In this document: positions 1,100 to 51,014 of the stretch, one piece after another | How positions within the stretch are numbered: position 1 is the stretch's first letter | How the letters are laid out: each line of letters opens with the position of its first letter | Assembly (NCBI RefSeq): GCF_003334355.1 | Contig: NZ_QOWP01000006.1 | Origin: Escherichia coli | Lineage (GTDB): Bacteria; Pseudomonadota; Gammaproteobacteria; Enterobacterales; Enterobacteriaceae | Direction: 5' to 3' (one strand) | Length of the DNA stretch: 64,000 bases | Notes under the pieces: model-generated | The model's input: only the letters and a program-made list of their open reading frames with translations | Database searches by the model: none | Told to the model about the DNA's origin: nothing | Made by a program: the position numbers and the translations under genes

Positions 1100-1240
1100 G
1101 ACTGCCGGATGCGGCGTGAACGCCTTATCCGGCCTACGGTTCAGGCACAAGTTTGTAGGCCTGATAAGACGGGTAAGCGTCGCATCAGGCAATGGTGCTC
1201 GGATGCCGGATGCGGCGTGAACGCCTTATCCGGCCTACGA
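1100..1240. repeat. REP/BIME cluster: three REP palindromes (two near-identical direct copies GCCGGATGCGGCGTGAACGCCTTATCCGGCCTAC flanking an inverted copy)
   Basis: Direct inspection: the same ~35 nt GC-rich palindromic unit occurs at about 1104..1138 and 1205..1239 with an inverted variant at about 1155..1190, in the gap between convergent copA and ybaQ. Confidence 0.85.
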
Positions 1241-1739: not shown

Positions 1740-2534
1740 ATGGATCTGTTGTACCGGGTAAAAACGCTTTGGGCCGCGCTGCGCGGTAATCATTACACCT
1801 GGCCTGCCATCGATATCACCCTCCCCGGCAATCGCCATTTTCATCTGATTGGCAGTATTCATATGGGTAGCCACGATATGGCTCCCCTGCCCACCCGTTT
1901 GCTCAAAAAGCTCAAAAACGCCGATGCGCTGATCGTCGAGGCGGATGTTTCCACCAGCGATACGCCTTTTGCTAATTTGCCTGCCTGCGAGGCGCTGGAA
2001 GAGCGCATTAGCGAGGAGCAACTCCAAAACCTGCAGCACATTAGCCAGGAGATGGGCATTTCTCCCTCACTCTTTTCTACCCAACCGCTGTGGCAAATCG
2101 CGATGGTTCTTCAGGCGACGCAGGCACAAAAACTGGGGCTGCGGGCAGAATACGGTATCGATTACCAGCTATTGCAGGCGGCGAAGCAACAACATAAACC
2201 CGTGATTGAACTGGAAGGGGCTGAAAACCAGATTGCCATGTTGCTCCAGCTCCCTGACAAAGGACTGGCGCTGCTGGACGATACGCTGACCCACTGGCAT
2301 ACCAACGCACGGTTGCTGCAACAAATGATGAGCTGGTGGCTGAATGCACCGCCGCAAAATAATGATATAACGCTGCCCAATACGTTCAGTCAGTCGCTGT
2401 ACGATGTGCTGATGCATCAGCGAAATCTCGCCTGGCGGGATAAATTACGCGCCATGCCGCCGGGGCGATATGTGGTCGCGGTCGGTGCACTACACCTGTA
2501 TGGAGAAGGGAATTTGCCGCAAATGTTGCGCTAA
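1740..2534 (+). CDS. ybaP: TraB/GumN-family protein YbaP
   Basis: ORF 1740..2534(+), 264 aa; preceded by GGAGG SD (aagggaggtcgtATG); protein recognised as E. coli YbaP. Confidence 0.85.
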   Translation: MDLLYRVKTLWAALRGNHYTWPAIDITLPGNRHFHLIGSIHMGSHDMAPLPTRLLKKLKNADALIVEADVSTSDTPFANLPACEALEERISEEQLQNLQHISQEMGISPSLFSTQPLWQIAMVLQATQAQKLGLRAEYGIDYQLLQAAKQQHKPVIELEGAENQIAMLLQLPDKGLALLDDTLTHWHTNARLLQQMMSWWLNAPPQNNDITLPNTFSQSLYDVLMHQRNLAWRDKLRAMPPGRYVVAVGALHLYGEGNLPQMLR

Positions 2535-2617
2535 AAAAATGGCCAATATCGCTATTGGCCCGTCAAAGAGGAATTTCATTTTTTTATTATTATGCCGTCA
2601 CTTTAAGCGACGGTGTA
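2535..2617 (-). ncRNA. chiX: Hfq-dependent small RNA ChiX (MicM/SroB)
   Basis: Minus-strand sequence ACACCGTCGCTTAAAGTGACGGCATAATAATAAAAAAATGAAATTCCTCTTTGACGGGCCAATAGCGATATTGGCCATTTTTTT: 5' stem-loop, AU-rich single-stranded stretch, then GC hairpin plus U-run terminator; lies in the ybaP-ybaK gap; not in the ORF track. Confidence 0.85.
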
Positions 2618-8289: not shown

Positions 8290-8380
8290 TATGTAGGCAT
8301 GATAAGACGCGCCAGCGTCGCATCAGGCATCGAGAGCCAAATGCCAGATGCGGCGTGAACGCCTTATCTGGCCTACGAAC
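8290..8380. repeat. REP/BIME cluster (two inverted REP units)
   Basis: GTAGGCATGATAAGACGCGCCAGCGTCGCATCAGGCA and TGCCAGATGCGGCGTGAACGCCTTATCTGGCCTAC between convergent ybaL and gsk. Confidence 0.85.
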
Positions 8381-33154: not shown

Positions 33155-33268
33155 GGGTGGGGGCCCTGCCAGCTACATCCCGGCACACGCGTCATCTGCC
33201 TTGGCTGCTTCCTTCCGGACCTGACCTGGTAAACAGAGTAGCGTTGCGGGAGAACCAACAGAGCCCCC
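33155..33268 (-). ncRNA. ffs: 4.5S RNA (signal recognition particle RNA)
   Basis: Minus strand reads GGGGGCTCTGTTGGTTCTCCCGCAACGCTACTCTGTTTACCAGGTCAGGTCCGGAAGGAAGCAGCCAAGGCAGATGACGCGTGTGCCGGGATGTAGCTGGCAGGGCCCCCACCC, the canonical 114 nt E. coli ffs, including the conserved domain IV GGAA tetraloop region. Confidence 0.95.
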
Positions 33269-33344
33269 ATTGAGAGCGTTGAGAACCAACGCGCAGGCGC
33301 ATTATCACTGCTGCCCCGGCTAATTGCAACCCATCGCGTGCCAG

Positions 33345-33734
33345 ATGCTGGTTTCTTGCGCAATGCGACTTCACTCGGGCGTTTTTCCAGATTATGCTGA
33401 AAAATTACCTCAGGAAGAAAAGATGGAAAAAGAAGATTCATTTCCCCAACGCGTCTGGCAAATCGTCGCCGCTATTCCCGAAGGCTATGTCACCACTTAC
33501 GGTGATGTGGCGAAACTGGCGGGATCGCCCCGCGCCGCGCGCCAGGTGGGCGGTGTGTTAAAGCGTCTCCCTGAAGGCAGCACCTTACCCTGGCACCGGG
33601 TGGTTAATCGCCACGGCACAATTTCGCTAACCGGACCGGATTTACAGCGTCAGCGACAGGCATTACTGGCAGAAGGTGTGATGGTATCGGGAAGCGGGCA
33701 AATCGACTTGCAGCGTTATCGCTGGAACTACTAA
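33345..33734 (+). CDS. atl: Alkyltransferase-like DNA damage sensor Atl (YbaZ)
   Basis: ORF 33324..33734(+); start at MLVSCAMRL giving 129 aa; AGT-like fold but PWHRV replaces the PCHRV active-site motif (Trp for catalytic Cys). Confidence 0.88.
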   Translation: MLVSCAMRLHSGVFPDYAEKLPQEEKMEKEDSFPQRVWQIVAAIPEGYVTTYGDVAKLAGSPRAARQVGGVLKRLPEGSTLPWHRVVNRHGTISLTGPDLQRQRQALLAEGVMVSGSGQIDLQRYRWNY

Positions 33735-50827: not shown

Positions 50828-50930
50828 AGAGCTCTCTCTTAGTTTAATTTCCGCCAGGTAATCAGATGACACGACTGTGCTTCACGCCATCTATTAACAT
50901 GTACGTCAGTATATGGGGATGTTTCCCCCA

Positions 50931-50958
50931 CATTCAACGCCGAGAATAGAGGAAAAAT
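50931..50958 (-). promoter_or_regulatory. sigma32 heat-shock promoter of lon
   Basis: Minus strand reads GTTGAATGTGGGGGAAACATCCCCATATACT: -35 TTGAA and -10 CCCCATAT upstream of the lon start. Confidence 0.75.
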
Positions 50959-51014
50959 TAAAGGGGAGATAAAATCCCCCCTTTTTGGTTAACTAATTGT
51001 ATGGGAATGGTTAA

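Follow-up and report, generated by a model that had tools for sequence, protein, structure and literature searches.

Genomic context of atl

The DNA analysed here is a 64,000-nucleotide stretch of Escherichia coli sequence (the window), in which positions 33345-33734 of the plus strand hold an open reading frame that begins with ATG and runs for 129 codons plus a stop. A 701-base query around this frame was 100% identical to the atl/ybaZ region of E. coli K-12 MG1655, and the order of the neighbouring genes, pdeB(+), ybaA(-), ffs 4.5S RNA(-), atl(+), ybaY(-), tesB(+), amtB(-) and glnK(-), is that of the K-12 atl/ybaZ neighbourhood. The encoded protein has the same sequence as UniProt ATL_ECOLI (b0454; Atl, eATL or YbaZ) and represents the same gene, differing from that entry at most in its start, which is annotated for 129 aa but probably lies at the 103-aa position. 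The exact 103-aa version is named "O(6)-alkylguanine repair protein YbaZ" in a database record. We are highly confident that the locus is E. coli atl (formerly ybaZ), encoding an ATL protein of lesion binding and nucleotide excision repair (NER) recruitment, most likely of 103 aa and starting at ATG 33423 (Table 1).

Overall, the window is about 99.5% identical to K-12, with no differences in the atl region, and therefore comes from another E. coli strain. The first 1239 positions, at the 3' end of copA, are 96.9% identical to K-12, compared with about 99.5% elsewhere. Relative to K-12, the length differs at two intergenic sites, one near 1103-1239, where there is a REP/naRNA4 element, and one near 11842-11896. 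The other Rfam matches in the window (sraA, the DnaX element, sroB and naRNA4) are all expected in such an E. coli region.

Of 5426 complete E. coli genomes, 5425 contain the atl region, in nearly every case as a single chromosomal copy. One complete genome in this collection lacks it, and two of the roughly 5500 matches fall on records labelled as plasmids.

Table 1. Positions of atl, its key codons and other elements in the window. Alignment columns are given in the order Atl / Ada / Ogt / vpAtl / Atl1.
Feature	Position	Strand	Basis or remark
naRNA4 (REP-derived) element	1158-1235		Rfam
sroB sRNA	2533-2616	-	Rfam
naRNA4 (REP-derived) element	8296-8373	-	Rfam
DnaX programmed-frameshift element	16296-16360	-	Rfam
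ffs, 4.5S / SRP RNA	33164-33260	-	Rfam RF00169, 68 bits; divergent from atl
Promoter-like -35/-10 site	33329-33301	-	Promoter scanner; fits ffs
26-codon in-frame extension	33345-33422	+	Part of the 129-aa GenBank/UniProt model; probably a 5' leader or promoter DNA
Shine-Dalgarno core AGGA	33412-33415	+	7 nt upstream of ATG 33423
atl CDS as most likely translated	33423-33734	+	103 aa + stop, MEKEDSF start; RefSeq/PGAP WP_000409911.1
Tyr52 codon	33498-33500	+	Y in 5/5 sequences; supports base flipping
Arg66 codon, arginine finger of helix-turn-helix	33540-33542	+	R in 5/5 sequences; = Atl1 Arg39
Leu75 codon, Asn hinge position	33567-33569	+	Column L / N / N / L / L (Ada Asn313, Ogt Asn131)
PWHRV motif, residues 82-86	33588-33602	+	CCC TGG CAC CGG GTG
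Trp83 codon (Trp57 in 103-aa numbering)	33591-33593	+	TGG; replaces alkyl-acceptor Cys by alignment column
Perfect 11-bp G+C-rich hairpin, includes atl stop codon	33732-33757	.	Between convergent atl and ybaY
sraA sRNA	50899-50994	+	Rfam

Active-site motif and conserved residues

The window protein was aligned with MAFFT to Ada and Ogt, both from the K-12 genome record to which the window had been matched, and to the Atl of Vibrio parahaemolyticus (vpAtl) and Atl1 of Schizosaccharomyces pombe. Trp83 (129-aa numbering, used throughout) lies in the column of Ada Cys321 and Ogt Cys139, the Cys of their PCHRV motifs, and this column reads W / C / C / W / W in the order of Table 1; a Cys is absent from it in the window protein. 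A phmmer alignment to Mycobacterium tuberculosis OGT sets 'lpWhrv' over 'vpChrv', in independent agreement on the Trp column, and a search of the translated 103-aa core found no cysteine. Among 120 close homologs, 117 carry Trp in the motif (100 PWHRV, 10 PWYRV and 7 PWFRV). The three that do not (P0063, P0081 and P0084) all come from read-assembly sources, two of them with local frameshift-like garbling, and are probably sequencing errors.

Tyr52, Arg66, His84 and Glu110 are conserved with Ada and Ogt. Tyr52 and Arg66 are assigned to base flipping and to the arginine finger, respectively, in the review PMC10779285. Glu110, part of the active-site network, is Glu in all five aligned sequences, and the His84 column reads H / H / H / F / H, with Phe only in vpAtl. 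Leu75, eight residues ahead of the acceptor position, stands where true alkyltransferases have their Asn hinge, which ATLs are stated to lack (PMC10779285). The change from Cys to Trp is not the sole difference from the enzymes, given Leu75 at the Asn hinge and the missing N-terminal AGT domain.

Family, predicted fold and selection

A Pfam search of Atl returned PF01035, the alkyltransferase DNA-binding/active-site domain, at residues 33-112 (E=5e-27) and no other domain, the N-terminal AGT domain being absent. The only NCBIfam model passed was the superfamily model TIGR00589 'ogt', with 53.2 bits against a cut-off of 46.4; the Ogt equivalog NF007626 (44.3 bits, cut-off 192) and the Ada equivalog NF011964 (37.1 bits, cut-off 345) were not reached. 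The best sequence matches in the PDB are Atl proteins (2kif/2kim, E=1.8e-28; 3gva, 1.7e-17), and true alkyltransferases rank after them, from 6e-10. A PADLOC search for anti-phage defence with the 103-aa protein gave no match.

From a 33-sequence alignment, AlphaFold2 produced a model in which residues 31-129 have pLDDT above 90 and helices span 52-58 and 65-73. In a Foldseek comparison with the PDB, 2kif came first (TM 0.89, rmsd 2.0 Å), followed by Atl1 (3gva/3gx4) and about 40 alkyltransferase chains, and every match at E <= 0.001 was an Atl or AGT chain. Atl is thus predicted to have the fold of the alkyltransferase C-terminal domain.

The core is 84-90% identical between enterobacterial genera. 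Between E. coli and Salmonella it shows 47 synonymous and 13 non-synonymous codon differences, and its base differences are distributed 11/6/53 over the three codon positions, with 53 of 70 at the third. This pattern indicates clear purifying selection on the core.

ATL proteins are single-domain proteins of about 100 aa in which the acceptor Cys is replaced, in most members by Trp. The window protein agrees with the ATL family in every feature that can be assessed from sequence and lacks the defining feature of true alkyltransferases, the acceptor Cys in PCHRV. A preliminary description of this DNA had proposed an alkyltransferase-like protein carrying PWHRV in place of PCHRV, with Trp where the catalytic Cys would be, and the motif, the alignment with Ada and Ogt and the structural matches all bear it out.

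Published function and proposed mechanism

The biochemistry of E. coli Atl has been described previously. According to the summary in PMC10779285, which cites Pearson 2005, the protein shows none of the activities of an alkyltransferase, a glycosylase or an endonuclease, and a Cys put in place of the PWHRV Trp does not restore activity. The same review gives low- to sub-nanomolar affinities of ATLs for O6-alkylguanine and describes a DNA bend of about 45 degrees and an enlarged, hydrophobic pocket that receives the flipped base. Direct binding of E. coli ATL to UvrA (KD about 100 nM) and to UvrC, and its co-translocation with UvrA on DNA, are also reported (PMC10779285; PMC7835731). In vivo, ybaZ is reported to raise NER of O6-alkylguanine adducts (Mazon 2009, cited in PMC10779285 and PMC6449902). 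The papers that link ATLs to NER, as summarised in PMC10779285, PMC7835731 and PMC6449902, are Tubbs 2009, Mazon 2009 and Rill 2020.

These reports and our analyses are consistent with the following mechanism. Atl, which consists only of the C-terminal DNA- and lesion-binding domain of O6-alkylguanine-DNA alkyltransferases, would bind DNA via its helix-turn-helix. Arg66 and Tyr52 would flip O6-alkylguanine into the pocket, where Trp83 stands in the place of the acceptor Cys. Lacking any cysteine, the translated core could not accept the alkyl group; with no alkyl transfer, Atl would remain tightly bound, bend the DNA and recruit UvrA and UvrC, so that the lesion would be removed by NER. Bound Atl may also shield the lesion from futile mismatch repair. 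None of our results speaks against this mechanism. The gene identity, the Trp column, the conserved base-flipping residues, the fold and the purifying selection on the core are established here; the inactivity, the tight lesion binding, the interaction with UvrA and UvrC and the in vivo effect on NER are taken from the literature on E. coli Atl. The suggestion in the preliminary description of a damage-sensing, non-catalytic protein that hands lesions to NER agrees with this published function, as far as it is summarised in the three articles cited above.

Alternatively, the main role in vivo might be to shield the lesion, by blocking mismatch repair or by competing with Ada and Ogt, with no active hand-off to NER. 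The first paper on the protein concerned inhibition of MGMT through lesion binding, to go by its title as cited, and eATL is reported to prevent mismatch-repair-mediated toxicity (Mazon 2010, cited in PMC6449902). We nevertheless consider this unlikely in view of the reported UvrA and UvrC binding, the co-translocation with UvrA and the enhanced NER in vivo (PMC10779285, PMC7835731, PMC6449902). Moreover, shielding and NER hand-off are compatible and do not exclude each other.

Atl proteins illustrate how the scaffold of an inactive enzyme can channel a small base lesion, usually a substrate for direct reversal, to nucleotide excision repair. For E. coli Atl, the founding bacterial example of the ATL family, this lesion-routing role has been settled since 2005-2010. 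The identity of the protein as a Trp-for-Cys Atl and its function in E. coli were already known, and the present finding adds nothing new to them.

Translation start

The preliminary description had assigned the gene to 33345-33734. The open reading frame stands, but initiation is probably at ATG 33423 (Met27), 78 bases later, giving a protein of 103 aa and leaving these 78 bases untranslated. We base this start on the RefSeq annotation, the extent of homology, the AGGA signal, codon statistics, predicted disorder and published N-terminal peptide and Ribo-RET data.

Homology of Atl to PDB chains and to the Pfam domain starts near residue 30, and Met27 is nearly invariant among homologs. The records of the 120 close homologs are 103 aa long in 47 cases and 129 aa in 22. 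Salmonella, Citrobacter, Raoultella and Klebsiella also have the AGGA core, a 6-7 nt spacer and the ATG, whereas no Shine-Dalgarno or purine-rich tract was seen in the sequence ahead of ATG 33345. This upstream ATG also lies only 16 nt past the -35 hexamer of the minus-strand promoter-like site that fits the divergent ffs. In Klebsiella and Raoultella, the DNA upstream of the AGGA-ATG is unrelated to the E. coli extension, and the protein has 103 aa. For the gene in the window, RefSeq/PGAP annotates this same length.

Codons 1-26 differ between E. coli and Salmonella by 2 synonymous and 13 non-synonymous changes, with a codon-position spread of 11/6/7. Among E. coli, Salmonella and Citrobacter the counts are 2 synonymous and 9-13 non-synonymous, evenly spread over codon positions. 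The substitution pattern of these codons is non-coding in type. Residues 1-30 of the AlphaFold2 model have pLDDT of 45-50 and no secondary structure, and are predicted to be disordered.

Published start-site data point the same way. For b0454 atl, Table S1 of the TRAINSPOTTER N-terminomics study (PMC13245402) gives MEKEDSFPQR (residues 27-36) as the N-terminal peptide, labelled "N-terminal truncation (26aa)" and supported by Ribo-RET and REPARATION. The start given there, NC_000913 476293, maps to window position 33423, and this table holds no entry for the annotated start Met1. The main text of the Meydan Ribo-RET preprint does not mention atl or ybaZ.

Could the full 129-aa frame from ATG 33345 nevertheless be the functional protein? 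The 129 codons are open in Escherichia, Salmonella and Citrobacter with similar first residues (MLVSCA), and 129-aa records occur among the homologs as counted above. Set against the ribosome-binding signal, the codon statistics, the disorder, the shorter protein of other genera and the peptide and Ribo-RET peak at Met27, this is very unlikely. Besides its MLVSCA start, the extension carries a conserved TTTCTTGCGCA block in the same three genera. That a rare long Atl isoform exists, as a frame open in three genera might suggest, is highly improbable in our judgement. We attach just as little weight to the extension being translated at a low level into such an isoform, or being a shared regulatory element that couples atl to the divergent ffs promoter.

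With initiation at ATG 33423, the 129-aa GenBank/UniProt model is probably too long by 26 residues, with consequences for the design of constructs and for the numbering of residues (Trp83 becomes Trp57). This correction of the start is the only useful output of the analysis, and RefSeq and published start-site data already contain it.

Flanking DNA

The promoter scanner found no sigma-70 promoter for atl above its threshold on the plus strand, the only promoter-like site being the minus-strand one for ffs. By eye, TTCACT (33370-33375) and TATGCT (33393-33398), separated by a 17-nt spacer, match at 8 of 12 positions, with partial conservation in Citrobacter and Salmonella; to call TTCACT-N17-TATGCT the atl promoter would be a guess only. 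Two blocks of the extension region are conserved in E. coli, Salmonella and Citrobacter, GATGCTG.TTTCTTGCGCA at 33340-33362 and CCAGATTAT.CTGAA at 33387-33402, and these may be regulatory elements of atl or ffs.

In a Salmonella ChIP-seq study, a peak for MarA/RamA/SoxS with the motif GCCCTGCCAGCTACA is entered under 'ybaZ'. The exact GCCCTGCCAGCTACA string occurs at window positions 33163-33177, inside ffs. With the motif within ffs, assignment of a MarA/SoxS/RamA site to ybaZ regulation is doubtful, and we take it as no evidence on the regulation of atl.

In E. coli M7424 (L010, NZ_CP063153.1), an IS3-family element at 1233-2446 lies between ffs and atl, at about window position 33382. It interrupts the 26-codon extension, and the 103-aa CDS is annotated as intact.

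The hairpin at the 3' end of atl has a dG of -19.7 kcal/mol and a z of -4.13, and none of 200 shuffles folds as well. A T-run after it is absent on either strand. We infer that it likely serves as a shared terminator or as an RNA-stability element.

Alternative explanations for the missing cysteine

Two further explanations would attribute the loss of the acceptor Cys to something other than a lesion-binding role. Atl might act as a functional suicide alkyltransferase by way of a nucleophile other than the usual Cys, in keeping with the retention of two catalytic-network residues, His84 and Glu110, the passing of the 'ogt' superfamily model and the name methyltransferase that it bears in many database records. 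Against this stand the Trp in the Cys column, the cysteine-free core, scores far under every Ogt and Ada equivalog cut-off (for example, 44 versus 192 bits) and the published assays already described, including the Trp-to-Cys change; we give it almost no credence, and the literature has already refuted it. That Atl is a decaying, functionless alkyltransferase remnant, as the loss of the catalytic Cys and the N-terminal domain might suggest, is refuted by the conservation pattern, with the gene in all but one of the complete E. coli genomes, a core that changes mostly at third positions across genera and homologs with the same Trp as far as Vibrio and fission yeast, and phenotypes are also on record (as summarised in PMC10779285 and PMC6449902).

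Comparison with known systems

E. coli Atl shares PF01035 with the true alkyltransferases, namely the Ada C-terminal domain (1sfe), Ogt, human MGMT (1eh6) and M. tuberculosis OGT (4bhb), at 27-36% identity. The helix-turn-helix, the Arg finger, the Tyr and the active-site His and Glu are common to both. True alkyltransferases differ from Atl in having the PCHRV Cys, the Asn hinge, an N-terminal domain and stoichiometric transfer of the alkyl group to themselves. Atl, in contrast, has Trp83 and Leu75, no N-terminal domain, no cysteine in its core and, according to published work, no transferase activity.

Among ATL proteins, that of V. parahaemolyticus (2kif/2kim) is about 50-52% identical across the whole core, shares the Arg finger and the Tyr and likewise carries Trp at the position of the acceptor Cys, but its motif is PWFRV and not PWHRV. 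Its solved chain begins at the equivalent of Asp31 and has no extension. S. pombe Atl1 (3gva; 3gx4 with DNA) is about 40% identical and carries PWHRV, with Tyr25, Arg39 and Trp56 corresponding to Tyr52, Arg66 and Trp83. Although Atl1 is eukaryotic, has insertions near its C-terminus and partners with the eukaryotic NER machinery, the hand-off of lesions to NER is a role common to it and E. coli Atl.
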